Counted from the first letter of the stretch, positions 1-24,563 are shown. The stretch: DNA of 40,000 nucleotides from an uncultured Solirubrobacterales bacterium (GCA_963843305.1 CAWJJS010000001.1:1540804-1580803), one strand, 5' to 3'. Notes: a model not told the origin generated them from the sequence alone. Numbers and translations are program-made.

Positions 1-57
1 CGTGTACGTCGCATCATTGAGGAGGACCGCGAGTTGCTAGAGCGACTCGCCAAGTGA
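1..57 (+). CDS. Putative antitoxin, C-terminal fragment (gene runs off the window start)
   Basis: Frame 1 reads ...RVRRIIEEDRELLERLAK, then TGA at 55-57. That stop overlaps the GTG start (54-56) of the Doc-family gene (GTGA coupling), the usual antitoxin-toxin order. Eighteen residues are too few for a family call. Confidence 0.4.
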   Translation, partial: RVRRIIEEDRELLERLAK

Positions 58-467
58 GCATCCGCTACATCGAGCTGGTCGAGTACCTCGCAATCGCGGC
101 GGAGGTAACTGGGCTAGACGTCAACATGCTTACACGTGTCGCCAAGATCGACCTCGCGGAGTCGGCGCTGCATGCGCCAGCAGCCGGCTTCGGCGAGACA
201 GAGTTCTACCCGGACTTCATCGAGAAGGCCTCCGTTCTAGCCGTGCATCTCACGAAGAACCATCCGTTGCCTGATGGCAACAAGCGCGCCGCCTGGGTAG
301 CGTTGCGCTTGTTCATCGCGATCAACGGTTGGACGTGGCGCACCACGCCGACTGTCGATGATGCCGAGCAGGCCGTCCTGGCCATCGCCGCCGGCACATG
401 GAGCCAGGACGACATGGCCACATGGCTGCAGCGCCACCTCACGCCACCGTCCACAACGCCCTCGTAG
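54..467 (+). CDS. doc: Doc (death-on-curing) toxin, Fic/Doc family
   Basis: 137-aa ORF with the Doc variant of the Fic motif, HPLPDGNKRAA (HxFx[D/N]GNKR). The size is typical and it is coupled to the upstream small ORF. Confidence 0.85.
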   Translation: MSIRYIELVEYLAIAAEVTGLDVNMLTRVAKIDLAESALHAPAAGFGETEFYPDFIEKASVLAVHLTKNHPLPDGNKRAAWVALRLFIAINGWTWRTTPTVDDAEQAVLAIAAGTWSQDDMATWLQRHLTPPSTTPS

Positions 468-2410: not shown

Positions 2411-3524
2411 TCAAAACAAGGTCTGCTGGATCGGTTTCTCTGGCTCGCGCGGCTTGCGCTTCTCACGGGCATGAGAGGCGTATGCGCCGACGATGCGGTC
2501 GAGCGCTCGGCCCTTGTCGCGGTGTCCGTAGAGGCGGCGAACGAGGTTCCCGCCGTCCTGATGTCCGAGCGCGATGGCTACGTCCTCGGATGACATTTCA
2601 AGCTCGTTGACCATGTACCAGCCCGCGAAGTGTCGAGTGGCAAGGTAGAGGCTGCCTTCCCAGCTTGCGGCGGCCCTGACGGCCTTCCAGTGGTAAGCGC
2701 GGGAGCTTGGTGTCCAGTGCTCGCCGCGCAGCGAGACGAAGCAGAATTCACCCTCACGCGCCAGTGCCGGAGAGGGCGTCGTGGGCGTGTGTGGTCAGAG
2801 GTGCCTCGCGCCGCAAGTGATTCTTCGGCGTGTCGAACGCGCGGGTCGCGGCGCTGAACTGTTCGGCTACGACGATGCGGGCGCGGTCAAAGTCGATCCG
2901 CTCCCACCGCAGCGCGTCAAGCTCGCCGGGGCGAAGGCCGGTGAACGCAGCGACTTGCAACCACGCCGCAAACGACGGACACGCCAGTTTACGGGCGTGC
3001 GCGATGATCTCCCACACCTTCTGCTCGGTTGGTGGTTGCTGGTCGCGTCGGCCCTTGCCGCGTGAGATGCCGAGCTTCTGAAACGGGTTGCGGTCGATCA
3101 GCCGACCAGCCTTCACCGATGCCGCGTCGTTGAACATCGAAGACAGCCCCTGGACCGACCCGGCACGGCCACCACCGGCGAGCCAGTCGGCGACGATCTC
3201 ATCCCCGACTTGGATGATCGGGACATCGCGGTAGCGCGCGGCGAAGCTCTTGGTCAGCTCACGGCGGCGGATGTCGCTCGACTCCTTTGGGCGCGCGAAC
3301 AGCGGATCGGTTGTCCAGCGCTCCCAGAAGCTATGGACGGTCACGTCCCTTGCATGGACCGCCCCCAAACGCTCGCGCGCCTTCTCGCGCGCCCGCTTTG
3401 CTTCAGTCTTGGTCGCGAACGTGCCAGGGCCGCCAACGACCTTCGAGACGCTGAGGTTCTTCCCGGTCGCAGGGTCGTAGACCTGCGCTCGCCAGCGACC
3501 CGATGGGAGCCGTGTGACGCTCAC
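2411..3524 (-). pseudogene. Tyrosine integrase of island 1, single frameshift near 2755-2765
   Basis: GTG 3524 follows RBS GGGAGAGG and overlaps the xis stop (GTGA). The 5' part (VSVTRLPSGRWRAQVYDP..AAFTGLRPGELDALRWERIDF..) reaches TGA at 2754. The adjacent frame continues with REGEFCFVSLRGEHWTPSSRAYHWKAVRAAASW..ATRHFAGWYMVNELEMSSEDVAIALGHQDGGNLVRRLYGH, which holds the HxxR and catalytic Tyr regions. The length is 3n+1. Confidence 0.8.
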
Positions 3525-3709
3525 GCCGCCCTCTCCCGTTCCGAGGCCCAGGAGATAGCCGCAGACGGCCGGAAACGGCGCGTGCGACGTCCCCACGTCA
3601 CCGACGGCATCCCCTCGGCGACCATCCGATCCACCGTCGCCAAACTCACACCCATGATCGCGGCCAGCTCAGCGCGCGCTACGTAGCGCTCAGGCGCTAC
3701 AGGTTGCAC
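3521..3709 (-). CDS. Excisionase-type HTH protein (Xis) of island 1
   Basis: ..YVARAELAAIMGVSLATVDRMVAEGMPSVTWGRRTRRFRPSAAISWA.. is an excisionase/MerR-type HTH. Its stop overlaps the int start codon. The start (GTG 3709) is uncertain. Confidence 0.65.
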   Translation of the reverse strand: MQPVAPERYVARAELAAIMGVSLATVDRMVAEGMPSVTWGRRTRRFRPSAAISWASERERAA

Positions 3710-4317: not shown

Positions 4318-4933
4318 ATGTCTGACGTAGAACAAAAGCCCGATCTCCCAGCGCTCCACCGCCTCGCCTATTCCCAGGATGGCCTCTTCACAACGCGACA
4401 GGCCCAAGAACGAGGCGTCAGCGCACAGCTTCTCGCCCACCACGCCCGATCAGGCCGGTTCCAGCGGATGCGACAGGGGCTCTATCGCCTCAGCGACTAC
4501 CCAGCAGGCGAACACGATGAGATACGCGCCGCATGGCTCACCGTCGGGATGGAGAGGACGATCGTCTCGCATGAGAGCGCGCTCGTGCTGCATGGACTTT
4601 CCGACGTCCTGCCAAACACAGTGCATCTTCTCGTCTCCCGCGAGCACCGGGGAGTCCGGGCGCCCAGCGGCGTCACCCTGCACACCGCTACCGCGCCCAT
4701 ACCGGACGAGCGACATCACGACCCGCTACGGCATCCGCGCCACAATCCCAGCGAGGACGATCATCGACGCGGCACGCTCAGGCACCGCGCCAGAGCAGAT
4801 CCAGATGGCCATCCGCCAGGCCCTCCAGGAAGGCCGCACCACGCCGGACCAGCTCGCCGAGCACGCCGAGCGAAACGGCGGACACGTCGCCGCACTCGTG
4901 AAGCAAACAACCGAGGAAGCAACCACCGCGTGA
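4318..4933 (+). pseudogene. AbiEi-family antitoxin/transcriptional regulator, frameshifted near 4710
   Basis: The N-terminal AbiEi-like wHTH (LHRLAYSQDGLFTTRQAQERGVSAQLLAHHARSGRFQRMRQGLYRL) is in one frame. The C-terminal half (DITTRYGIRATIPARTIIDAARSGTAPEQIQMAIRQALQEGRTT) is in the +1 frame and ends at TGA 4931-4933. Confidence 0.75.
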
Positions 4934-5897
4934 AGTACGACACCGCCGAGGCATTCCGAGCGGCGCTTGACCAGCGCATTCGCAACGAAGCGACCACGAC
5001 CAGGTCTGCCCGTCATGCGGCTACGGAAGCGCGTCGCCTTCGAGCGCTTCCTCGCCAGGCTCGCTGTCGCGGAGCCCGGAAACTGGGTGCTCAAGGGAGC
5101 ATTCGCGCTTGAGCTGCGACTCGGCGTGCGAACACGCAGCAACCAAGGACATCGACCTTGCGGGAGCCGACGACGAGCAGACCGCGACCATAAGGCTCAT
5201 CGCCGCACAGGCGATCGACCTCCACGACCACTTCAGCTTCGACGTGGCGCGCACCGCCGCACTCGACGAAGCAGAAGCATTCCGAGCCGTCCGCTACAGC
5301 GTGACCGCCGAAGTCGCCGGACGACGCTTCGAGCAGTTCCCCGTAGACGTCGCGCTCAACGAGCAGCCAACCACCCCCTCCGAACGACTGCCAATCCCAA
5401 GCCTCCTGGACTTCGCGGACATCCAGCCCGTCGAGATGCCCGTGATCGCCCTGGAGCAGCACATCGCCGAGAAGGTCCACGCATACACCGCAACCTACGG
5501 CCCACAGGAACAACAGAGCACCAGGATCAAGGACCTCATCGACATCCTCCTAATCGCCGACCTCGCCACCCCACACGCCGACCGCCTACACGCGAGCCTT
5601 GCCACGACTTTCAGCACCCGCGAACGCCAGCCACTCCCGACCGCGCTCCCACCGCCGCCAACCTCGTGGGCAAGGCCCTACACAAGCGCCGCAGCAGACG
5701 TCGGGCTACCAACCGACCTCGGGACAGCGCACGCCGAGGCCGCCACCTTCCTCGACCCGATCCTCGTCGGCACCACCGACCGGCCGCTGGAACCCTGCGC
5801 AGAAGCACTGGAACGATCCCTGAGCAGCGAGCACGGACTCCCCTCGCGAGCTGCGCAGCCCGCCCAACCGCGCACCCAAAAATCTTGCACAGACTAG
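4930..5897 (+). pseudogene. AbiEii-family nucleotidyltransferase toxin (DUF1814), two frameshifts
   Basis: GTG 4930 overlaps the AbiEi stop (GTGA). VKYDTAEAFRAALDQRIRNEA is followed in the +1 frame by RLRKRVAFERFLARLAVAEPGNWVLKGAFALELRLG. A further +1 frame gives TKDIDLAG...STRIKDLIDILLI. The nucleotidyltransferase G-rich/DxD signature is therefore spread over three frames. The length is 3n+2. Confidence 0.75.
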
Positions 5898-6080: not shown

Positions 6081-6963
6081 TTGTCTCCTGCGCCTACTTC
6101 GAATTCCCGCGAGCCAATCGGGCACCGCTTCAGCGCGGCCCTCACACACTGGTGGCCGATCGCCGTCGGCGTCCTAGGCACAGCCCTGCTCACGATTGGC
6201 GGTGTCAGCCCAGATGCCACGTTCGAGATCGGGGGCGACACCGACCACTGGGTTCCGTTCCTGATCGGCGGGGGCCTCATTCTCCTCACGCTCGGCGCCG
6301 TCAGCGGAGGGGTGCGGCAACTGCACCTCGACAGGTTGCAACGCGAGCGCACCGAGTTCAAGGAACACGCCGAGGCCGGCGCGCGAGCGCTGCTGCGACT
6401 CATTTTCCATGAGCTGGAGCAGCTCCGCTTAGCCGCCGGACACTTCAGCAACGAGCGCGTCACCCTCTTCCGCTGCGACGGCGACGGTTTCATCGTGCTC
6501 GGCCGACGCTCCGCCCGCCCTAACTACGACTACGACCGTTGCCCCGGACGACCCAGGTACCCCGAAGATCAAGGCTGCCTCGGATTCGCCTGGAAAGACG
6601 GCCGCTCCGAGCAGACCGCGCTGCCCCCCGCCGGCCAGGCCCAGCCATGGAGCGAGGATTGGGTTCGGGCACAGACAGAAGCTCGGGGTACCACGCGCCA
6701 CAGCCGAAGCGCTCACGATGCCAAGTTGCTCATACCTCGCGTATCGCATCGAGGGCCTCGAGCGATCGCTCGGCGTAATTGTCTTCGAGAGCATCAACAC
6801 ATCAAGCCAGGCCGAACAGCTCAAATCGACGGTCGCAATCACCTCGGACACCCTCGACCCGATTCAGAAAAGCGCCTCCGGCAGACTCGCCGACCTCCTC
6901 CGCGAGAGCGAGTTCATCCCTGCCGCTACCGTCGCGGCGCTGCTGCCTGGCATCCGCGACTAG
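6081..6963 (+). pseudogene. Membrane-anchored protein with GAF-like C-terminal domain, frameshifted near 6680
   Basis: Two N-terminal hydrophobic segments (WWPIAVGVLGTALLTIGGV, WVPFLIGGGLILLTLGAV) are followed by ..VTLFRCDGDGFIVLGRR..GCLGFAWKDGRSE... The protein-like sequence then continues in the +1 frame (GVPRATAEALTMPSCSYLAYRIEGLERSLGVIVFESIN...) to 6963. The GAF assignment is tentative. Confidence 0.5.
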
Positions 6964-7017
6964 GCGATCCCCGGAGTCCGCCCCACCCACGTCAGTGGCG
7001 GCTAGGCTTCCGGCGCT

Positions 7018-7599
7018 TCAGCGGTTTGCTGGCGTGCCAGTAGCCTCGTGGTGCCGCTCGCCTCGTGCAATCCGCTTGCGCGCCGCGATCGAGTTGATCC
7101 GCCACCGCATCAACGCCTCCGAGACGCCCATCGCCTCCGCCGCCGCGCCTGTGGCCACGCCCCTTGTGCACAGCAGCAGGCATGCCTCGTCAGTTACCAG
7201 GAGCGACGCGCCAAGCCAGCTCGCCTCGGCCTCCTGCGCCTCATCAAACCCGGGCGCCTTACCGTCCGACACAGGGTGGGGCTCATGAAGCAGTAGCGCG
7301 TGCGCGAGCTCATGCGCGATGTCAGCGCGCTGCCGGGTCGCTGCGTGCACGTCGTTGTGGATGATCACCCGCCGCTGCCCGACGAACGCCATCATCGCCG
7401 AGAACGCGCCCTCCTCGACGCCCGCCAGCAGCTCCACAGCGCCCGGAATCACGGACCCGTAGTCGGTCAAACGCCAGACGGGGATCGCGAGGTGCTCAGC
7501 AAGCGCCCACGGGTCCAGCGGATCGAGGGCTGCGAGTTCCAGCTCGCCCCGAACCTCCTGCGCCAGCGCACGCGCTTCGGTCTTGAAGCCCCGGCGCAT
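7018..7599 (-). CDS. ImmA/IrrE-family zinc metallopeptidase (COG2856-type)
   Basis: 193 aa with the HEXXH motif HELAHALLLH. It lies 9 nt downstream of an XRE HTH gene, the classic ImmR/ImmA-like pairing. Confidence 0.75.
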   Translation of the reverse strand: MRRGFKTEARALAQEVRGELELAALDPLDPWALAEHLAIPVWRLTDYGSVIPGAVELLAGVEEGAFSAMMAFVGQRRVIIHNDVHAATRQRADIAHELAHALLLHEPHPVSDGKAPGFDEAQEAEASWLGASLLVTDEACLLLCTRGVATGAAAEAMGVSEALMRWRINSIAARKRIARGERHHEATGTPANR

Positions 7600-7608
7600 C
7601 AGGCAGCC

Positions 7609-7962
7609 TCACTCGGTCCTTAGCCGCTTGTACGTCGCTTTCAGCAGCTCATCCAGTGCCGCTGCCGCATCCTCGTTCAGATGCGGGTCCCGGCGCAAAA
7701 GGACGGCGATCTCAGCCAGTGGCTCCGACACACCGGGTGTGCCCGCGATGAAGTCACCCGGTTTCAGGCCTGCCCATGCGACGAGCGCGGCGAACGAGTC
7801 GACATCCGGCCGCTTGCCCTGACCCACCCTGGTCAGAGTGGAAGCGCTGACACCTGCCTCGTACGCCAGCTCCTTCCATGTCACATCGCGCGATTCGCGC
7901 GCTGCATTCAACGCGAGGAAGAACCCACGGCTGTCGAACGCGCGTGTTCGATTCGCGCTCAC
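7609..7962 (-). CDS. XRE-family helix-turn-helix regulator
   Basis: TWKELAYEAGVSASTLTRVGQGKRPDVDSFAALVAWAGL is a Cro/C1-type HTH. Its GTG start (7962-7960) overlaps the TGA of the upstream DUF6527-like gene. Confidence 0.8.
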   Translation of the reverse strand: MSANRTRAFDSRGFFLALNAARESRDVTWKELAYEAGVSASTLTRVGQGKRPDVDSFAALVAWAGLKPGDFIAGTPGVSEPLAEIAVLLRRDPHLNEDAAAALDELLKATYKRLRTE

Positions 7963-8372
7963 AACGCCCCGCCCTCTCCGACGGCGCGCCGTCGTCGTCG
8001 CCGTCGTCGTCGCCGCCGCGAGTCCCGCGTGAAACTCACGCGTCCGTCACGCAGCCAGAAATGACAGCGGGTGTACGCATCGGAGAAGTTGACGGACGGT
8101 GAGAGCGACGGGCCGCCGCTCCCTGCGCTCAACGTCCAGAACGGCCGGCGGCTCGCGGAGAGGTTGACCATAATTGTGTGCCCGGTCCCGCACGGACACT
8201 CAAAGCTGGCCCACTGCGGGTCCGCCGGGCTTCCCGTCACCACGACCGCTCGGCGGGGAAGCCGGGCGGGGAGTTCACTCTGCCGTGCGAAATATTTGAC
8301 GTCGTCCAGCCGCGGTGTGATCACACGCTGACGACGAAGCCAGTCGGTTGCCCGGTCCGCTATGGCGCCCAC
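7959..8372 (-). CDS. DUF6527-type zinc-knuckle protein with a poly-arginine tail
   Basis: FECPCGTGHTIMVNLS..PFWTLS..GPSLSPSVNF..RCHFWLRDGRVSF matches the CxC...CH core remembered for DUF6527 proteins, which accompany prokaryotic E1/E2/Ubl operons. The C-terminus carries 11 consecutive Arg. The start is uncertain: GTG 8372 is preferred (GGGGA RBS, 13-nt overlap with the E1 gene), with ATG 8435 or GTG 8324 as alternatives. Confidence 0.7.
   Translation of the reverse strand: MGAIADRATDWLRRQRVITPRLDDVKYFARQSELPARLPRRAVVVTGSPADPQWASFECPCGTGHTIMVNLSASRRPFWTLSAGSGGPSLSPSVNFSDAYTRCHFWLRDGRVSFTRDSRRRRRRRRRRRAVGEGGAL
7986..8018 (-). repeat. (CGN)11 trinucleotide tract encoding Arg11
   Basis: The minus strand reads CGG CGG CGA CGA CGA CGG CGA CGA CGA CGG CGC. 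Confidence 0.9.
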
Positions 8373-9742
8373 GTGATCCCCAGAGGCGGTTCCCGATCGC
8401 CGAGACCCCACTTCGTCGCGGGTGCGCAATAGCAACCGTCGCGGATCGCGCCCGCGGGCCTGCCGATCGCCCGGTCGCTGATGCGCAACAGCACCTTCCC
8501 CGACAGCCCCGCCTCAGCGAAACCGAACAGCCGCTGCAGCAGATCCGCCACCGCGTAGGAGGCCGTCATGGTCGTATAGGCGATTACTGCCGGGTCCGGC
8601 TCATCCAGGCCCTGCGCGTATCCCTCCGCCGCCAGACGCGTCCGCTCGCTCTCGGAGTAGCGCTCTTCCGCGGCGCGCTGCGGATCGATCTCACCACGAC
8701 ACAGCAAACACGGTTCGCCGGGGGTAGCGACCGTCACCCGACCGTAGATGCCCACGATCTTCTCGTGATCGGAGGAGATGACAACGCCCATGTCGATCAC
8801 GGGGATCAGATACCAGTACGCAAGCCGCGAGAGGACGCTGCGGCTACTGTGGCTATCGGTGCACCCAAACACCACATCGCATGTGCGCAGCAGTTCCATC
8901 GTCTCTCGCCGCGTGACGTTCGCGTGGTGGCCCTCGACACGTGTCCTCAGACCGATCGCCGTGAGGTGGTCGTGGAGCACCGCGACCTTCGCCCGTCCGA
9001 CGTCGGAGAGCGTCGAGCCATAGATTCGGGTCACGTTCGTGTCGGTGACGACGTCATGGTCGATCAGCACAAGCTGCCCGATCCCGAGTCTCGTCAGCTG
9101 CTCGGCGACCGCTGAGCCGGTTCCCCCGCAACCCACCACACCCACCCGGAGGCTGCTCAGCACCTGCTGGCCGGCCTTACCGAACGCCCGGATCTGCCGG
9201 TCATATGCCTCGAGCTCAATCCCACGGCTGCCTTCGTCTGCCCCAAATGCCCGGGCGACACGGATCTGGCGGCCGACGGTGCGCACTCGCTCTACGGCAA
9301 GGACCGGCTGATCATCCTCGAAGACACGACCGCTGAGCGTCGGTCGACCCTCAAGGACACCGAGTATCAGGCTGGCGTACCGGGCCGAGTTCGCACGCGT
9401 TTTGAACACCCGGGTCAGCGCCTCATCGACAACGTCGTCGCGAATCGACGGCGTCGGGGGGCTGTGCGGGTGCGTGTGGAAGAAGATCGGGACGAGCTTC
9501 CGCGACGCGGCGACCTTCAGGGCATGCATCCACCCATGGGAGGCGATCCGCAACTGATGCCCGTCTCGTTCCTCGTAGGCGCTGTCGGGCACCGACAGGA
9601 TCTCGTTGATCGTGAGTGTGAGCCGCTCGCGGTCGTCCGCGACCCCGGCGAGCAGGACGGCTGCCGTCTCGCGTGGGTCGGCGAGGGCCGCGGTCAGCTC
9701 GCTCCAGTGCTGTTCAGCGAACGTGACCGTAACGGTGCTCAT
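8360..9742 (-). CDS. JAB/MPN deubiquitinase-like domain fused to a ThiF/E1-like adenylyltransferase
   Basis: The N-terminal domain has a perfect JAMM motif, HTHPHSPPTPSIRD (HxHx7SxxD), with an upstream Glu (PRETAAVLLAG). The C-terminal Rossmann fold reads VGVVGCGGTGSAVAEQLTRLGIGQLVLIDHDVVTDTNVTRIYG, with CxxC (PCLLC) and CxC (GCYC) motifs. ATG 9742 overlaps the E2-like stop (ATGA). Confidence 0.85.
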   Translation of the reverse strand: MSTVTVTFAEQHWSELTAALADPRETAAVLLAGVADDRERLTLTINEILSVPDSAYEERDGHQLRIASHGWMHALKVAASRKLVPIFFHTHPHSPPTPSIRDDVVDEALTRVFKTRANSARYASLILGVLEGRPTLSGRVFEDDQPVLAVERVRTVGRQIRVARAFGADEGSRGIELEAYDRQIRAFGKAGQQVLSSLRVGVVGCGGTGSAVAEQLTRLGIGQLVLIDHDVVTDTNVTRIYGSTLSDVGRAKVAVLHDHLTAIGLRTRVEGHHANVTRRETMELLRTCDVVFGCTDSHSSRSVLSRLAYWYLIPVIDMGVVISSDHEKIVGIYGRVTVATPGEPCLLCRGEIDPQRAAEERYSESERTRLAAEGYAQGLDEPDPAVIAYTTMTASYAVADLLQRLFGFAEAGLSGKVLLRISDRAIGRPAGAIRDGCYCAPATKWGLGDREPPLGITWAP

Positions 9743-10125
9743 GCTGCTATGGGCACGCCGGCCTGAAGGTTGGTCCGAACGAACCGCAGGTACGACTGAA
9801 GGTTGTCGATTCCGGGCCGCCAGTCGTTCTCGTTCAGGTGGCGAGACCACCGCTGCCAGGTCCGCTCAACGTAGACCTCACGCTGCTCGGAGCCCGGCGG
9901 CATTGCACCAGCCTGATAGGCCACGGCCGGTGAGAGCCAGAACATATCCGGGCGCGCGTCAGGGAAACCGTTCGGCAGCCGGATCAAAAGGTCCGCATGG
10001 GTCACGTCGTACCCTGGCGGCAGCCCGTAGTCGCTGATCACGAGGTTTACGACCTCACCCTCCGCGTGGGTTCGAAAGGTCAGGCCGCGGGACTGCAGGA
10101 AATTCGTGTCGTCTTCGGCTAGCAC
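9739..10125 (-). CDS. Prokaryotic E2/UBC-like (UEV-like) protein lacking any cysteine
   Basis: 128 aa. ..LVISDYGLPPGYDVTHADLLIRLPNGFPDARPDMFWL.. resembles the prokaryotic E2-fold family found beside multiubiquitin and E1-JAB genes. Its GTG start overlaps the Ubl gene end by 7 nt. The sequence contains no Cys. Confidence 0.65.
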   Translation of the reverse strand: MLAEDDTNFLQSRGLTFRTHAEGEVVNLVISDYGLPPGYDVTHADLLIRLPNGFPDARPDMFWLSPAVAYQAGAMPPGSEQREVYVERTWQRWSRHLNENDWRPGIDNLQSYLRFVRTNLQAGVPIAA

Positions 10126-10376
10126 GCGCCCGGGCTGATGTTGCTGGGGGACGAGTAGAAGTGCATGTCCTCTTTGACGCGCACCGTTTCGACTGGGGTA
10201 ACGGCCTTGTCCTCAGTGTCGCCGTGCTCCTCAAGCCACAGGTCAAAGTTCTCACCGATCGGCGGCGTGGGAACGTTTCGCAGTTCGGCGCCTGTCATGT
10301 CGCGCTCATGGACGGTGTACGGCTGGCGGTCAATATGAATCCTGATCGTGGGCTCGTGCTCCGAAGCGTCTGCCAT
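10119..10376 (-). CDS. Ubiquitin-like beta-grasp protein (multiubiquitin-family type, single domain)
   Basis: RBS GAGGAG precedes ATG 10376. The 85-aa sequence is MADASEHEPTIRIHIDRQPYTVHERDMTGAELRNVPTPPIGENFDLWLEEHGDTEDKAVTPVETVRVKEDMHFYSSP... This matches the pattern remembered for multiubiquitin-domain proteins (I.I.v...y.v....tG.el......p....L.......d..v......v....g..F). It is the first gene of the operon. Confidence 0.65.
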   Translation of the reverse strand: MADASEHEPTIRIHIDRQPYTVHERDMTGAELRNVPTPPIGENFDLWLEEHGDTEDKAVTPVETVRVKEDMHFYSSPSNISPGAC

Positions 10377-10664
10377 CTCGTAGTCTCCTCTAAAGATTGC
10401 TAGTGCGGCGTGCGATTGCATTCTAGCAACCAGTTCCGTCGTGTCCCCGGCTCTGCTTCCGCCTCGTTCCCCAGCGTGGGCGGCTCGTGGGCGGGACGGC
10501 CAGAAAGCGACAGCTAGCTCGTCCAGCAATCTCGGCCAAATCGCCCCGCGATTCCCACCCCTGTACCCAAATATTCCCGGTCAGGGCGGCTCCCAGCCCC
10601 CGCCCACATCCACCAGCACTTGTATCGGGGACGGGTTGAATCTGCGACCGCCCGCCCGACAACA

Positions 10665-10921: not shown

Positions 10922-11965
10922 CTACCTGGACGCCACGGCTTCGAGGGGAGCGATATCCTCGCCCCAGGCCGCCAACAGGCGAGCGCGGGCTGCATCCTCG
11001 CGCGGATGACCGTAAAGCTCTTGCACCAGGCGACCGCCATCGGTGTGGCCCAACTGGACCGCGACATCCCATGGCGTCGATCCTCGTTCGAGCAGCATCG
11101 TCGCACCCGCGTGGCGAAGCTCGTAGAAGTCGAATCCGGGCCGGTCAGCAAGGAGCCTGAGCTTGGTCCAATACCTGTGATGGAGGCTAGCGGTCCACTG
11201 CTTGCCACCAGGAGTCACGAACAGCAAGCCAGAGCGGTGGTCAGGCACGTCCGAGAGCGCGTGCTGTGCGACGGGCGGGATTGTGACGGTGCGTGGCTTC
11301 CCATTCTTCGGAGGCGTCGTCTCGTGGCTGTGGCTGGAGTAGGCCCGCTCGATGGTACATAGCTGACCGCTGATGTCATCGCGGCGCAACGCGAACAGCT
11401 CGCCGGGACGTAGCCCGACGTAGCCCGAGAACAGGATCATGGCCCGGTACTCCGGCCCGTACTCGCCAAGCTCCATCCGACGATCCAAAGCCAAGTTCGC
11501 AAGTTCCATCAACTCGCTCTCGGTCAGCGCCACGATGTCCTTGCGGCCACGGCCACGGGCGATGCGGAGTTCGGCGAAAGGGTTGTAGGGGACCAATCCA
11601 TCCCGCAGGGCATCGCCGAACATGGCCCGTACGGTCGTCAGGTCGTGTCGGTGCTTGAGCGCCCACGCTCTCGCGGTGGGTCGATCAACGTCGCCGAGCT
11701 TGACGCCCTTGAAGTCCTTGGCAAACGTCTTCGTGTGCTCTTCGTTGGTCATCGTCGTGGACTTGCGTGGGCGCGGGAAATCCCGCATCCACCGCTCAGC
11801 AAACTGATCGCATGTCTCGGCTCCGGTTGGCTTGCCCTTCAGCCGATGATCTGCCTCCGCCGCTAGAGCCTCTCGCTTCGTCGCGTAGGTCCCCAGATGC
11901 ACCTTGCGCTTGAGCGCTTTGTCGTAACCGCTTGCCGTCCAGCGCTTACCCCGCTTCCGTGCCAT
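10922..11965 (-). CDS. Tyrosine recombinase / integrase (intact)
   Basis: 347 aa. ..GLRPGELFALRRDDI.., ..FYELRHAGATMLLERG.. (HxxR) and ..VQLGHTDGGRLVQELYGH (catalytic Tyr) are all in one frame. The N-terminus is an Arm/SAM-like region. Confidence 0.9.
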   Translation of the reverse strand: MARKRGKRWTASGYDKALKRKVHLGTYATKREALAAEADHRLKGKPTGAETCDQFAERWMRDFPRPRKSTTMTNEEHTKTFAKDFKGVKLGDVDRPTARAWALKHRHDLTTVRAMFGDALRDGLVPYNPFAELRIARGRGRKDIVALTESELMELANLALDRRMELGEYGPEYRAMILFSGYVGLRPGELFALRRDDISGQLCTIERAYSSHSHETTPPKNGKPRTVTIPPVAQHALSDVPDHRSGLLFVTPGGKQWTASLHHRYWTKLRLLADRPGFDFYELRHAGATMLLERGSTPWDVAVQLGHTDGGRLVQELYGHPREDAARARLLAAWGEDIAPLEAVASR

Positions 11966-12668: not shown

Positions 12669-12854
12669 ATGTCTACCGAGTCAACACTAACGAGAGCCAT
12701 CAGCAGCCGGGTGAAGCCCGACCAGATCGCTCAGCTTCAGCACTATGCAGCAATCGACCGCGTGACGCCCAGTAAGTTCATTGCTCGGCTCGTTTACGCA
12801 GAGCTTCAGCGTCGTAACAGCGCATCCGGTTCTGCCGGTGCCGACCATGAGTAG
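12669..12854 (+). CDS. Ribbon-helix-helix (CopG/Arc-like) small DNA-binding protein
   Basis: 61 aa. ..ISSRVKPDQIAQLQHYAAIDRVTPSKFIARLVYAEL.. shows the RHH beta-strand plus two helices pattern. It is the first gene of the rightward operon. Confidence 0.6.
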   Translation: MSTESTLTRAISSRVKPDQIAQLQHYAAIDRVTPSKFIARLVYAELQRRNSASGSAGADHE

Positions 12855-13683
12855 GGGCGACGCTGTTTCTTCAGCCAAGCGGTCCACGTCTACACCGAAA
12901 ACCGGTGCCTTTGACCGACTGAATTGGGCTCGGGATCAGCAAGTCAACAATACGACGCGCAAGGCGATTCTGTTTGCCTTGGTGAGCTACTCCAAACCAA
13001 ACGGACACGTATGGGCGCGCCAAGTCACGCTCGCAAAGGTTGCCGAATGTAGCCGACAAACCGCAAACGAACATTTGCAGCGGCTACGCGACGAAGGCAA
13101 GATCGACATGCGCCGTCAATATCGGACGGACGGCTCCCGTCGTGACAACGAGTACCTGCTCTTGTTCCGCTCCGACGTAACATGGCCGGATGGCACGATA
13201 CCCGAGAATATGTCGGCCATCCCGACACATTCCGGTGAGAACTGGTCGGGGACACCGACACATTTTGGGAAAAACATATCGGCCAAACCGACAACCCGTG
13301 TCGGGGAAACCGACAACCTAAGTCGGCCATCCCGACACGTCAGGTCGGAACGTGTCGGGCAAACCGACAGTATAGACAGGAAAGAGAGCAAGAAACGCAG
13401 ACACACGAAATCTGACCAAGGCAACTCTGCTACAGACTCCGTGTGCATGCTTGGACAGGATGACGATGGTTCCGAGGATCGAGAGCCATCCAAAGACACT
13501 CCCCAGAAACGTATGGAAAAGCTGCGGGCAGCAGCAGCGGAACGTGCAGCAGGGCCAAAGCCCATAGCCGCTACAGATGAGCCCGAGCCGGTGGCTACCG
13601 AATCGAAGCTGGACGAACTACGACGGCGAGCAAGGGGACGCGCGACAAGCGACAGCGCTTTTGACATCGACGCCTCAGTCTAG
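12847..13683 (+). CDS. wHTH DNA-binding protein, possible replication initiator of the element
   Basis: ATG 12847 overlaps the RHH gene end. N-terminal wHTH: ..RKAILFALVSYSKPNGHVWARQVTLAKVAECSRQTANEHLQRLRDEGKI... The central coding region holds the phased iteron-like array. The C-terminus is acidic and low-complexity. Confidence 0.6.
   Translation: MSRGDAVSSAKRSTSTPKTGAFDRLNWARDQQVNNTTRKAILFALVSYSKPNGHVWARQVTLAKVAECSRQTANEHLQRLRDEGKIDMRRQYRTDGSRRDNEYLLLFRSDVTWPDGTIPENMSAIPTHSGENWSGTPTHFGKNISAKPTTRVGETDNLSRPSRHVRSERVGQTDSIDRKESKKRRHTKSDQGNSATDSVCMLGQDDDGSEDREPSKDTPQKRMEKLRAAAAERAAGPKPIAATDEPEPVATESKLDELRRRARGRATSDSAFDIDASV
13212..13370. repeat. Six phased 17-bp iteron-like units GTCGGSSANMCCGACAM inside the Rep-like gene
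   Basis: Units start at 13212, 13245, 13278, 13300, 13322 and 13354, giving spacings of 33, 33, 22, 22 and 32 bp. Units 1 and 5 are identical (GTCGGCCATCCCGACAC). A 10-bp perfect inverted repeat, CCCGACACGT (13331-13340) / ACGTGTCGGG (13350-13359), is also present. Confidence 0.85.
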
Positions 13684-13700
13684 TATTCTATGTGAATGAC

Positions 13701-13734
13701 AGTGAAGCTCAGGCTAAAGATGATAAGCTTCACT
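13701..13734. other. AT-rich stem-loop between the Rep-like gene and the serine recombinase
   Basis: AGTGAAGCT (13701-13709) pairs with AGCTTCACT (13726-13734) around a 16-nt loop. It could be a terminator or a recombinase site. Confidence 0.35.
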
Positions 13735-13741
13735 TCCTCGC

Positions 13742-14506
13742 GTGGTCTTGCTAGTCACATCGGCCAAGCGTCACCGCATTAGGGTCAGTCGGAGCGTCCG
13801 TGAGAGCCCTGGGTATATTCGCTGCTCCACAACGGAGCAAGCCATAGACGGTATAAGCCTCGATGCACAGCGCAGTCGCATTACGTCGTGGGCCGAGGCA
13901 ACTTGCACCGATCTCGCGGAGATAATTACCGACGCGGGGATCAGCGGGACCCGCCCGCTCGCAGACCGTCCGGGCGGCGCTCGTATAGCGGCGCTGCTTA
14001 CCGCACGTCATCCTGACGTTGACACCGTGGTCATTGCACGACTGGATCGGCTGGGCAGGGATGCTGCCGAGACTCTGAACTATTTCAAGACGTTTGCGAA
14101 GGGCTCTGTCGGCTTGGTCTCGATTGCCGACAGACTCGACCTCTCAACACCACAGGGGAGGGCAATGGCTGGAGTTTCGGCGGTCTTTTCGGAGCTTGAG
14201 AGAGCGCTGATCGCACAACGAACGGCGGACGCACTCGGGGAGCTTCGTTCGCGAGGGCAGGTGTACGGAGCTATTCCTTTTGGCTTCAATCGAGAAGGTA
14301 ACCGTCTGATCCCTGACAACGCCGAGCAGCGTGTGCTCGCTCGTATTCGGCGACTTCGTGGGCGCGGCTTCAGCTACGACCGAATAGCGCGATCCTTGAA
14401 TGGGTCGGGTGTTCGTGCAAAGCGGGGTGGTAGGTGGAGTTCCATGTCGGTCAGGTCGGTCTTTCTCACTGCCCCAAGGGTGGGCTGTATCGAGGCAGCC
14501 GCGTGA
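13742..14506 (+). CDS. Serine recombinase (resolvase/invertase catalytic domain plus partial Recombinase domain)
   Basis: GYIRCSTTEQ holds the catalytic Ser. Other landmarks are ..VVIARLDRLGRD.., ..FSELERALIAQRT.., and then YGAIPFGF...RGGRWSSMSVRSVF. At 254 aa it lacks the zinc-ribbon and coiled-coil of large serine recombinases. The start (GTG 13742 or TTG 13748) is uncertain. Confidence 0.8.
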   Translation: MVLLVTSAKRHRIRVSRSVRESPGYIRCSTTEQAIDGISLDAQRSRITSWAEATCTDLAEIITDAGISGTRPLADRPGGARIAALLTARHPDVDTVVIARLDRLGRDAAETLNYFKTFAKGSVGLVSIADRLDLSTPQGRAMAGVSAVFSELERALIAQRTADALGELRSRGQVYGAIPFGFNREGNRLIPDNAEQRVLARIRRLRGRGFSYDRIARSLNGSGVRAKRGGRWSSMSVRSVFLTAPRVGCIEAAA

Positions 14507-15051
14507 GCCTGCTTGTCCCTCAGCCGATGAAGCGTGAGTGTTCGTGTGGGGCCACCCTGCGGTGGGAGAGCCGTGAGGACTACGACGGCAAGCGCTCACT
14601 GGCGCTCTGCTCGAATCCGGACTGTGGTGTTGTCACGACCGCAGTGACTAATGGCCACCAATCCGAGGACGGGCTGCGAACATTCCTGCTCGGAGATGCC
14701 CCTGTTCAGCGGTATCTCGCACCATGGGCGCGGCTTTACTGGAAAACGAGCCAATGGCGCTATCGGTGGCTTTCGCATCACGAGACGTGTCCCGACTGTG
14801 ACAGCGAGTTCACTGTCCAACTCGGTCTTCCTCCGTTGGCTGAGAGGCAGAACGATCCATACCAGGTCGTTATGTGTCTTACCTGTGGAGCAACGGGTAT
14901 GGCCTGGTGGCTCGGCGGAGAAAAGGTCGCCATCGCGATTGAGGGGAACGAGTGGAACGATTCTGCGACCGCCGTGCTGATACTGAAGCGGGTCCTCGAA
15001 GAACGGGCAGCCAAGACCTGCCAAAGCTGGACCTGGGACTTCCTCGGTTGA
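14503..15051 (+). CDS. Hypothetical protein with two zinc-ribbon-like Cys clusters
   Basis: GTG 14503 overlaps the recombinase TGA (GTGA). Cys clusters: CSCG...CSNPDCG and CPDCD...CLTCG. Confidence 0.55.
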   Translation: MSLLVPQPMKRECSCGATLRWESREDYDGKRSLALCSNPDCGVVTTAVTNGHQSEDGLRTFLLGDAPVQRYLAPWARLYWKTSQWRYRWLSHHETCPDCDSEFTVQLGLPPLAERQNDPYQVVMCLTCGATGMAWWLGGEKVAIAIEGNEWNDSATAVLILKRVLEERAAKTCQSWTWDFLG

Positions 15052-15233
15052 CTCCTACGACCTCGCTGTCCCGAGCCGAGAAGCTCGCCGACCGCGTCTG
15101 CGTTGTGTGCGGGGGCTCGCTGGCGGGCCGCAGCGAGGCGACCCGTCATTGCTCGGCTGCGTGTCGAGTGGAGGCATCGCGCATCAGGGCGATTCTGGCG
15201 GGAAATTACAGCGGACCCTATTGTTCCGGTTAG
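15048..15233 (+). CDS. Small zinc-finger protein (61 aa, TTG start)
   Basis: TTG 15048 overlaps the upstream TGA (TTGA). CVVCGGSL...RHCSAACRVEASR is a CxxC...CxxxC motif common in small phage or plasmid proteins. Confidence 0.45.
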   Translation: MTPTTSLSRAEKLADRVCVVCGGSLAGRSEATRHCSAACRVEASRIRAILAGNYSGPYCSG

Positions 15234-15301
15234 AGAAAGACTGGAAGCAGCCGAGAGGGGCGTACAAAGGGCTCTGCCGGGACGAAGGGACGGTGGCGTA
15301 G

Positions 15302-15520
15302 ATGGGCGATGAGAGCGCGACCGATTGGGCCGTACTCACTTCGCTACTTGATGGCGACTGCGTGCCCTGGTCCACCGAGGAGATCGCACGCGAGATCGGC
15401 GATCACCACGCCGTAGCCGACAGTCTCAACCGGCTTCACCGAGCAGGTCTCATCCATCGCTGCAACGAGTTCGCGTTCCCGACCCGGCCCGCACGACGCT
15501 TCGAGGAGTTGCGAGCCTAG
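15302..15520 (+). CDS. Small winged-helix protein, paralog family 2 of 3
   Basis: 72 aa. ..WSTEEIAREIGDHHAVADSLNRLHRAGLIHRCNEFAFPTRPARRFEEL is paralogous to 3922-4170. Confidence 0.65.
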   Translation: MGDESATDWAVLTSLLDGDCVPWSTEEIAREIGDHHAVADSLNRLHRAGLIHRCNEFAFPTRPARRFEELRA

Positions 15521-15591
15521 CCATCACAAATCAGTGACCCCGACGCCGTTGATAGCGACGCCGGGGTCTTACACAGGAGGTAGAAGCTCCC

Positions 15592-24289: not shown

Positions 24290-24398
24290 CAGGGCGATTC
24301 AGACCGGGTACGGCCTGCACTCAATTGCACCCAGATTTAGCATATTTTGCAGGCTATTTTGCGCACTCCTGCACGTCGCTGCATCTTGCGTGTTGCAA

Positions 24399-24472
24399 TC
24401 GGGGCGCCCGGATTCGAACCGGGGACCTCGCCGACCCGAACGGCGCGCGCTACCAGGCTGCGCCACGCCCCG
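24399..24472 (-). tRNA. tRNA-Pro (anticodon CGG)
   Basis: The minus strand reads CGGGGCG TG GCGC AGCCTGGTA GCGC G CGCCG TTCGGGT CGGCG AGGTC CCCGG TTCGAAT CCGGG CGCCCCG A. This is a canonical cloverleaf with anticodon loop UUCGGGU. CCA is not encoded. The 3' end faces the islands. Confidence 0.95.
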
Positions 24473-24563
24473 ACGCAGGACGCAGTATCCCACACACCGC
24501 ACCCAGGCTCCGGCCAGACTGTCTCTACCCCACCGACAGAGCCCGAGCGGCTACGCTCGCCCC

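Follow-up and report, generated by a model that had tools for sequence, protein, structure and literature searches.

The 40,000-nucleotide stretch of an uncultured Solirubrobacterales bacterium analysed here (GCA_963843305.1, CAWJJS010000001.1:1540804-1580803; hereafter the window) carries at positions 7959-10376 a string of minus-strand genes that very probably constitutes a Type I operon of the Bub (bacterial ubiquitination-like) family, formerly 6E.1/DUF6527. The operon is complete and intact, BubA and BubB are separately encoded, and a CapH/CapP-like regulator pair stands at its 3' end. The whole unit comprises six co-directional genes, in the order bubA, bubB, bubCD, bubE, a CapH-like helix-turn-helix (HTH) gene and a CapP-like M78 peptidase gene (Table 1). 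With somewhat less than even confidence, we propose that in a Solirubrobacterales-like clade the Bub unit has taken in a switch of the CapH/CapP-like kind, which would make the unit an autorepressed, damage- or infection-inducible tagging module with TTGC-N6-GCAA as its operator.

Operons of the 6E/DUF6527 type were renamed Bub in 2024 in preprints from the Corbett laboratory, which reported crystal structures and demonstrated conjugation both in vitro and in cells (Ye, Gong, Chambers, Corbett; bioRxiv 10.1101/2024.11.21.623953). Type I Bub consists of the JAB-E1 fusion BubCD, the family-E E2 BubB, the ubiquitin-like protein (Ubl) BubA and the DUF6527 protein BubE; the E1 has an invariant Tyr in its crossover loop and the E2 an invariant Ser, there is no catalytic Cys, so that the intermediates are oxyesters, and BubE is a Ser-His protease that strips the conjugates (bioRxiv 10.1101/2024.11.21.623953). 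The opinion expressed in the first-pass annotation of this DNA, that the DUF6527 type had no experimentally defined function, has therefore been overtaken as far as the biochemistry is concerned. Our literature search found nothing on Bub beyond these preprints (the older family names gave nothing relevant among the top results), and the supplementary files of bioRxiv 10.1101/2024.11.21.623953 hold no Conexibacter, Solirubrobacter, Patulibacter or Thermoleophil- entries; the lineage of the window is missing from the published Bub catalogue.

Homology, residue conservation and gene order carry the assignment. Reading of the sequence from 10376 down to 7959 shows bubA, bubB, bubCD and bubE coupled by stop/start overlaps, and the four minus-strand genes, the GTGCTAG, ATGA and 13-nt overlaps and the GAGGAG ribosome-binding site described in the first-pass annotation all lie where it had placed them. 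Its proposed content of Ubl, E2, JAB-E1 and DUF6527 genes was likewise borne out, for the last three outright by Pfam, with ThiF (2e-40) and Prok-JAB (1.4e-6, over the curated cut-off) in BubCD and the E2 and DUF6527 matches given in Table 1. For comparison we used the 80 nearest of more than 539 loci with a family-E E2 (labelled L001 and so on); L001 is a near-identical metagenome copy of the window locus, and in the species collection a metagenome-assembled genome (MAG) of the Solirubrobacterales comes nearest, with an E2 66% identical to the BubB of the window.

BubCD holds HTHPHSPPTPSIRD, GCGGTGS, IDHD and the cysteine pairs Cys345/348 and Cys437/439. Its best match among solved structures in the PDB is Citrobacter BubCD (9ea4; E 3e-32 over residues 21-433), to whose E28, H91, H93, D104, R227 and Y370 the window residues E25, H89, H91, D102, R239 and Y375 align. 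The JAMM residues are thus E25, H89, H91, S99 and D102, and the adenylation domain contains GxGxxG at 204-209, R239 and D296, with Tyr375 in the crossover loop. In an alignment of 72 homologues drawn from the 80 related loci, H89, H91, D102, R239 and Y375 are conserved in every sequence and none has a Cys in the crossover loop (positions 349-385), so BubCD is a JAMM-E1 fusion with an invariant crossover Tyr and no crossover Cys, as in Type I Bub. The PADLOC E1-E2 models match the adenylation region only (residues about 137-413). The remaining cysteines are also well conserved (C345 and C348 in 100% of the homologues, C439 in 98%, and His or Cys at position 437), and C345, C348, C437 and C439 are a probable structural zinc site of the MoeB type.

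This likeness to MoeB bears on another reading of the operon, as a sulfur-carrier biosynthesis module of the MoaD/ThiS plus MoeB/ThiF kind, which the first-pass annotation had named as running counter to its own. MoeB is the next-best solved match of the E1 domain after BubCD (E 1.4e-15, with Uba4 and ThiF following), one source annotates a fragment as a molybdopterin/thiamine adenylyltransferase, and the MoeB-like CxxC...CxC motif is kept. Set against this, the E1 shares one protein with a JAMM peptidase and has an E2 and a Ubl-specific DUF6527 protease as neighbours, the C-terminus of the Ubl is PG with a removable tail (...SPG-AC) rather than GG, the operon contains no rhodanese, MoaE or ThiG-type partner, and the Bub structures are closer by 17 orders of magnitude in E-value (3e-32 for BubCD). 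A sulfur-carrier role is accordingly extremely improbable, and the partner genes, the PG-plus-tail terminus and the closer Bub structure matches effectively exclude it.

The E2 gives a consistent picture. BubB is most similar among solved structures to Citrobacter BubB (9eae; E 1.8e-13), with the SRH and DMF motifs aligned and S94, H96 and D60 corresponding to Citrobacter S333, H335 and D299. The WQRWSRH motif that bears Ser94 and His96 is invariant in an alignment of 25 homologues and the protein has no Cys at all, i.e. BubB is a Cys-free family-E E2 with the Ser, His and Asp that are invariant in Type I Bub. With Citrobacter BubCD and BubB as its best solved relatives, the operon can be regarded, as had been suggested, as a prokaryotic ubiquitin-like conjugation system. 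The earlier proposal of an 'E1 Cys' as the catalytic residue to mutate cannot be upheld: the E2 is free of Cys, a crossover-loop Cys occurs in 0/72 E1 homologues and Tyr375 in 72/72, and the Cys pairs look like a zinc site.

BubE, whose gene overlaps bubCD by 13 nt, contains the CPC...CH signature, and its start codon is uncertain (GTG at 8372 or TTG at 8435). Across 78 homologues, C59 (100%), C61 (98%), H65 (83%), P92-S93 (100%), C103 (84%) and H104 (100%) are conserved, which provides the Ser93/His104 dyad and the zinc cluster characteristic of the Type I protein. The zinc ligands predicted from the sequence (C59, C61, H65 and C103) form a C2HC variant of the published C4 site; both versions are present among the 78 homologues, where ligands three and four switch together, and L064 and L066 have a Citrobacter-like CxCxC...CxxH site. 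By analogy with the experiments on Citrobacter BubE, the protein is predicted to be a serine protease that acts as a deconjugase.

Two further features of bubE were observed. The C-terminus of the protein (about 7989-8021, minus strand) has 11 consecutive Arg encoded by a near-tandem CGN repeat; the closest relatives have shorter Arg-rich tails (RRRRRRR in L002, RPRRRR in L007 and L011), and more distant BubE proteins have none, the paper describing hydrophobic extensions there. In addition, automatic gene calls omit bubE on two metagenome contigs that carry the exact BubCD of the window (L001:2445-2843 and an 11-kb Logan contig), so that some 400 nt between the genes for the E1 and the HTH protein stand empty, and the DUF6527 gene is therefore easily overlooked in annotation-based surveys. 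The BubE of L001 differs from that of the window by one residue, a Cys in place of Arg107.

Of the hidden Markov models that had been suggested as a check, those for Prok-E2, ThiF, Prok-JAB and DUF6527 all matched, whereas Multi_ubiq gave 1.3e-4 and 22.5 bits, slightly below its cut-off of 24.5 bits; a single-sequence search of solved structures gave nothing meaningful for BubA, and profile and fold searches were required. When 31 homologues were combined into a profile, it matched the solved BubA of E. coli ZDHYS365 (9cd2; E 1.3e-7), and an AlphaFold2 model (confidence, pLDDT, 80.7) is closest in fold to the multi-ubiquitin structures of Citrobacter and E. coli (TM-score 0.70-0.75, root-mean-square deviation 1.7-1.9 A), so that the predicted structure and the profile both confirm the beta-grasp fold. 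The C-terminal motif HFYSSPSNISPG is conserved, with a two-residue tail, Ala-Cys, after a Gly83 that is invariant in two homologue sets (n = 31 and n = 18). Homologues share F-[FY]-x-[AS]-P-x-x-I-N/S-P-G, after which their tails vary in sequence and run from 0 to more than 20 residues, and such variable tails fit with processing by the JAB domain after the Gly, as in Citrobacter BubAB, where this domain cleaves directly after the conserved Gly (bioRxiv 10.1101/2024.11.21.623953). Since the codon of the terminal Cys is fixed by the overlapping GTG-CTA start of bubB, conservation of this residue probably reflects the gene overlap and not chemistry.

The bubA stop overlaps the GTG start of bubB by 7 nt (GTGCTAG), and the two genes are separate, whereas the text of the paper describes BubA as fused to BubB in all Type I operons (bioRxiv 10.1101/2024.11.21.623953). 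This statement, together with the frameshifts carried by genes nearby and the fact that the bubA and bubB frames overlap in a C/G-rich stretch with Pro-Gly read in both, would be in keeping with a recent frameshift in a fused bubAB, leaving the operon a decaying remnant like its left neighbours. The comparative data refute this: all 58 E2 homologues in the databases are stand-alone proteins of 99-142 aa, a single BubA-BubB ORF (open reading frame) is found in 0/81 loci (the window and the 80 nearest), the identical 7-nt overlap is retained in 11/81, L001 among them, and BubA homologues are 82-100 aa long with ends of the form ...PGxC. Moreover, the catalytic residues of the window operon are all intact, and Table S1 files operons with separate Ubl and E2 genes under Type I (bioRxiv 10.1101/2024.11.21.623953). 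We consider the chance of a broken fusion to be minute and, because Table S1 itself holds unfused Type I operons, do not take fusion as defining the type.

A related observation concerns L020:5227-6375, from a MAG assigned to Oscillatoria nigro-viridis PCC 7112, where 17 nt separate the end of the Ubl ORF from the start of the E2 and the two are in different frames; O. nigro-viridis, in contrast, appears as a Ub+E2 fusion in Table S1. The mismatch could come from a second operon, from variation between strains, or from the way the sequences were annotated or assembled.

All residues reported as catalytic for Bub are present in the window proteins, and oxyester rather than thioester intermediates are therefore predicted. 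Taken jointly, membership of Type I Bub and a chemistry like that established experimentally for Citrobacter and E. coli seem highly likely, if slightly less so than the membership by itself. Full-length BubCD homologues were found on 49 plasmids versus none of 50,697 phage records, which fits a function for the host or for a mobile element.

The first-pass annotation described a four-gene operon. The four genes are indeed coupled, but the string continues with two more, at 7962..7609 and 7599..7018. The product of the first matches Pfam HTH_31 (3.6e-5) and HTH_3 (3.9e-4), both under the curated cut-offs, and weakly PADLOC capH (6e-3); that of the second matches Peptidase_M78 (1.3e-11) and, again weakly, PADLOC capP (4.7e-6), and against the PDB gives only weak matches to IrrE (E 0.027) and none to a solved CapP structure. 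The PADLOC models capH and capP rank among the best hits of the pair; given the weakness of the capH, capP and IrrE matches, we name it CapH/CapP-like only. The six-gene order recurs in L002, L005, L007, L012 (Conexibacter sp. DBS9H8) and L027; in L011 the genes are ordered as in the window, with an HTH gene after bubE, and no peptidase gene was detected there. CapH and CapP are reported to adjoin 31% of Bub operons (bioRxiv 10.1101/2024.11.21.623953).

Upstream of bubA we predict a sigma-70-type promoter, one promoter-like site being found between 6800 and 11000 versus 0.6 expected from shuffled sequences; at the matching position L002, L007, L012 and L027 carry TTGAC(A/G/C) together with a -10-like box. 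No intrinsic-terminator-like site was found between 11000 and 6800. The predicted -10 box is overlapped by a 14-bp palindrome, TTGCTAGAATGCAA, at 10429..10416, and a CTAGCAA arm at 10403..10397 completes a 7-bp inverted repeat with a 19-nt spacer. The core of the palindrome, TTGC-N6-GCAA, which has a background density of 0.034 per kb, occurs about 50-100 nt upstream of bubA in 5/7 loci with a downstream CapH-like gene compared to 0/70 without one, and in the remaining two of the seven a degenerate near-copy is present whose right arm differs at 2-3 positions. This co-occurrence is good comparative evidence for TTGC-N6-GCAA as the predicted operator, and it suggests negative autoregulation of the whole unit. 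The full regulatory model, with an HTH repressor, the palindrome and an M78 peptidase as the switch, stands in our judgement at about an even chance.

In the mechanism that we propose, the HTH repressor would sit on TTGC-N6-GCAA over the -10 box and hold the whole operon, its own gene included, at a low level until a stress signal activated the M78 peptidase and the repressor was destroyed; by analogy with CapH/CapP, the trigger would be DNA damage or phage infection, although both the regulation and the trigger are what we infer. The chemistry that follows would be that found experimentally for Citrobacter and E. coli. Pro-BubA would lose its Ala-Cys to the JAB domain of BubCD, exposing Gly83, which the E1 domain would adenylate with ATP, and Tyr375 of the crossover loop would then accept BubA as a tyrosine oxyester. 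From there BubA would pass to Ser94 of BubB as a serine oxyester, helped by His96 and Asp60, and on to lysines of the targets, from which BubE, as a zinc-stabilised Ser93/His104 protease, would take it off again.

Several points weigh against this interpretation of the unit. The locus is known from sequence alone; the Multi_ubiq match of BubA, like the HTH_31 and HTH_3 matches of the putative repressor, falls below the Pfam curated cut-off; the zinc site of BubE departs from the published C4 site; and the fusion of BubA to BubB given in the paper's text is at odds with the separate pair in the window. For capH and capP the similarity is weak; the peptidase, moreover, has 193 aa compared to the 242 positions of the capP model and matched no solved CapP. 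Finally, no Bub operon tested by the authors of the preprint protected E. coli from phages (bioRxiv 10.1101/2024.11.21.623953), and a role in defence is thus unproven.

The antiphage role of the operon may be put at one chance in two, and the label of candidate defence system given to it earlier is kept, as a candidate. The failure to protect E. coli speaks for a working Bub pathway that serves a mobile element or a general stress response instead, for example by modifying host or element proteins after DNA damage and so controlling element maintenance, excision or growth arrest. Pairs of an HTH protein and an ImmA/IrrE peptidase, such as ImmR/ImmA and DdrO/IrrE, also control prophage and integrative and conjugative element induction and radiation responses. 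The sole solved relatives of the M78 peptidase are IrrE proteins, an integrase and an excisionase-like gene directly adjoin the operon, and homologues are common on plasmids. Across genomes, however, it is the regulator pair and not the integrase that accompanies the Bub genes, the AbiE remnants and a TIR-based system nearby are typical of defence islands, and the related E1/E2/JAB systems, type II CBASS (the antiphage signalling system based on cyclic oligonucleotides) and Bil, act against phage (bioRxiv 10.1101/2024.11.21.623953). On balance we rate a stress- or element-related role in place of defence as the less likely, though live, alternative.

The surroundings of the operon are of mixed condition. 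The first-pass annotation called it the only intact cargo in a decayed island, which holds for the left flank but not for the right, where several genes appear intact, including an integrase, a resolvase, the TIR genes and an 8xMP gene. On the left, AbiEi is frameshifted, AbiEii is truncated and an integrase is reduced to a fragment. The N-terminal part of AbiEi lies in ORF 4318-5112 and its C-terminal part in ORF 4379-4933, and AbiEii (5109-5897) lacks about 70 N-terminal model positions; for such pseudogene calls a plot of GC phase at third codon positions (GC3) was partly informative, and coverage of the Markov models was more decisive for AbiEi. The ORF at 6081-7043, whose N-terminal half resembles a membrane-anchored protein, shifts in GC3 phase at about 6600, after which it is Arg/Pro-rich and seems to be read out of frame, and it is probably frameshifted. 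The integrase fragment and the Fic/DOC ORF suggest older, eroded mobile-element insertions to the left of the operon.

On the right, small co-directional plus-strand genes past the integrase (12781-17533) encode an HTH_36 protein, the serine resolvase and several ORFs with no family match; they are also called on an independent metagenome contig, and their GC content (0.56-0.60) is below that of the rest of the window. The two ThsB-like TIR genes are linked by a 111-nt direct repeat that is 75% identical, and together with the 8xMP gene (19732-21198) they resemble a TIR system of Thoeris-like type whose effector is a membrane protein; for this partner no PADLOC 2.0 model and no relevant literature were found. 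In a search for the borders of the island, no convincing att repeat of the tRNA-Pro 3' end was found (family D11 was only 79% identical over 29 nt).

Table 1. Features of the Bub unit and of its neighbourhood, in window coordinates.
Feature	Position	Strand	Remarks
bubA	10119..10376	-	85-aa Ubl pro-protein, single beta-grasp domain; ATG start
bubB	9739..10125	-	128-aa E2, Prok-E2 family E; GTG start; Pfam Prok-E2_E 8e-34
bubCD	8360..9742	-	460-aa JAB/JAMM peptidase and E1 adenylation fusion; ATGA overlap with bubB
bubE	7959..8372	-	137-aa DUF6527 (PF20137) protein, predicted deconjugase; Pfam 7e-20
CapH-like XRE-family HTH repressor gene	7609..7962	-	117 aa; GTG start overlaps bubE stop as GTGA
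CapP-like ImmA/IrrE (M78) metallopeptidase gene	7018..7599	-	193 aa; HELAH; starts 9 nt past the capH-like stop
Shine-Dalgarno GAGGAG	10385..10390	-	8 nt 5' of the bubA ATG; read from the sequence
Predicted sigma-70-type promoter	10420..10447	-	-35 GGGACA, 16-nt spacer, extended -10 TGnTAGAAT
Candidate operator for the CapH-like repressor	10397..10429	-	14-bp palindrome and CTAGCAA arm
Short Fic/DOC-domain ORF	54-467	+	
Tyrosine-integrase fragment	2754-3596	-	model positions 5-77 of 172 matched, at the C-terminal end of the protein
AbiE remnant	4318-5897	+	AbiEi split across two frames near 4705
320-aa ORF	6081-7043	+	convergent with the CapP-like gene; no family match found
Tyrosine integrase	10922-11965		full-length; excisionase-like gene adjoining
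Serine resolvase	13742-14506		includes the first part of a Recombinase domain
8xMP 'octameric membrane protein' gene	19732-20265	-	PF24838 1e-35; full-length, after the TIR pair
ThsB-like TIR paralogues, tandem	20746-21198 and 20308-20724	-	Pfam ThsB_TIR 2e-10 and 1e-6
tRNA-Pro	24398-24473		

Among ubiquitination-like pathways, those of Bub alone have been reported to do without a catalytic Cys. The window locus adds no new chemistry to this; it is a compact and intact Bub example with a minimal, single-domain Ubl, from a lineage absent from the catalogue, and its variant features (the split minimal BubA, the E1 zinc motif, the C2HC BubE with its poly-Arg tail and the regulators inside the operon) are minor. 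The residues informative for function would be Tyr375, Ser94/His96, Gly83 and Ser93/His104, rather than Cys. A regulator pair predicted to be co-transcribed with the enzymes, together with a conserved candidate operator, could help to find what turns Bub systems on. If the switch has indeed been captured as we propose, the operator, repressor and peptidase would offer a direct handle on the triggers and targets of Bub, and a minimal form would work with an 85-aa Ubl and a two-residue pro-tail.

Compared with known systems, the window resembles Bil and the Cap2/Cap3 proteins of type II CBASS in that E1, E2 and JAB-type parts conjugate a protein C-terminus to targets. Both of those use a catalytic Cys and thioesters, however, whereas the window E2 has no Cys, and DUF6527 is absent from both. 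In Bil the JAB is a separate protein and the E1 has two domains and includes a Cys domain, unlike the single adenylation domain fused to JAB in the window, and with its Cys-free BubB the operon does not belong to Bil. In Cap2 the E2 is joined to the E1 and acts, alongside a separate JAB (Cap3), on a CD-NTase from its own operon; the window has a stand-alone E2, a JAB domain within the E1 protein and no CD-NTase among the products of the six genes, which also sets it outside type II CBASS. The CapH/CapP regulators found in CBASS and other defence operons and the wider switches of XRE-family HTH and ImmA/IrrE (M78) proteins share with the window an HTH gene followed by an HExxH M78 gene and a palindromic candidate operator over the promoter; the window pair differs in its weak matches to CapH/CapP, its short peptidase and its place inside the regulated operon.

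The closest characterised system is the Type I Bub of Citrobacter sp. RHBSTW-00271 (PDB 9ea4, 9ea5, 9ea8, 9eae and 9eav), which has the same four activities, the same JAMM E/HxH/D, adenylation Arg, crossover Tyr, E2 Ser-x-His with Asp, and BubE Ser and His, and a similar mobile or defence context. The window BubA, in contrast, is a separate, single-domain protein of 85 aa with a two-residue tail, where in Citrobacter the Ubl has three domains and is joined to the E2; the CxxC...CxC zinc motif of the window E1 is missing from Citrobacter BubCD, BubE has a C2HC site and an Arg-rich extension in place of a C4 site and a hydrophobic one, and the host lineage appears to be Solirubrobacterales-like. 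The unfused operons in Table S1 (for example those of Verrucomicrobium sp. 3C, Streptomyces sp. 61, Mycobacterium sp. GA-2829 and Hyphomicrobium denitrificans) share with the window a Ubl and an E2 encoded apart, the fusion of JAB and E1, DUF6527 and often CapH and CapP; Verrucomicrobium sp. 3C is L064 in our set, with an E2 43% identical to the window BubB. The gene numbers in the rows of Table S1 considered here place CapH/CapP beside the Ubl gene (bioRxiv 10.1101/2024.11.21.623953), whereas in the window and five to six relatives the regulator pair follows the DUF6527 gene, co-directional with it and overlapping its stop.

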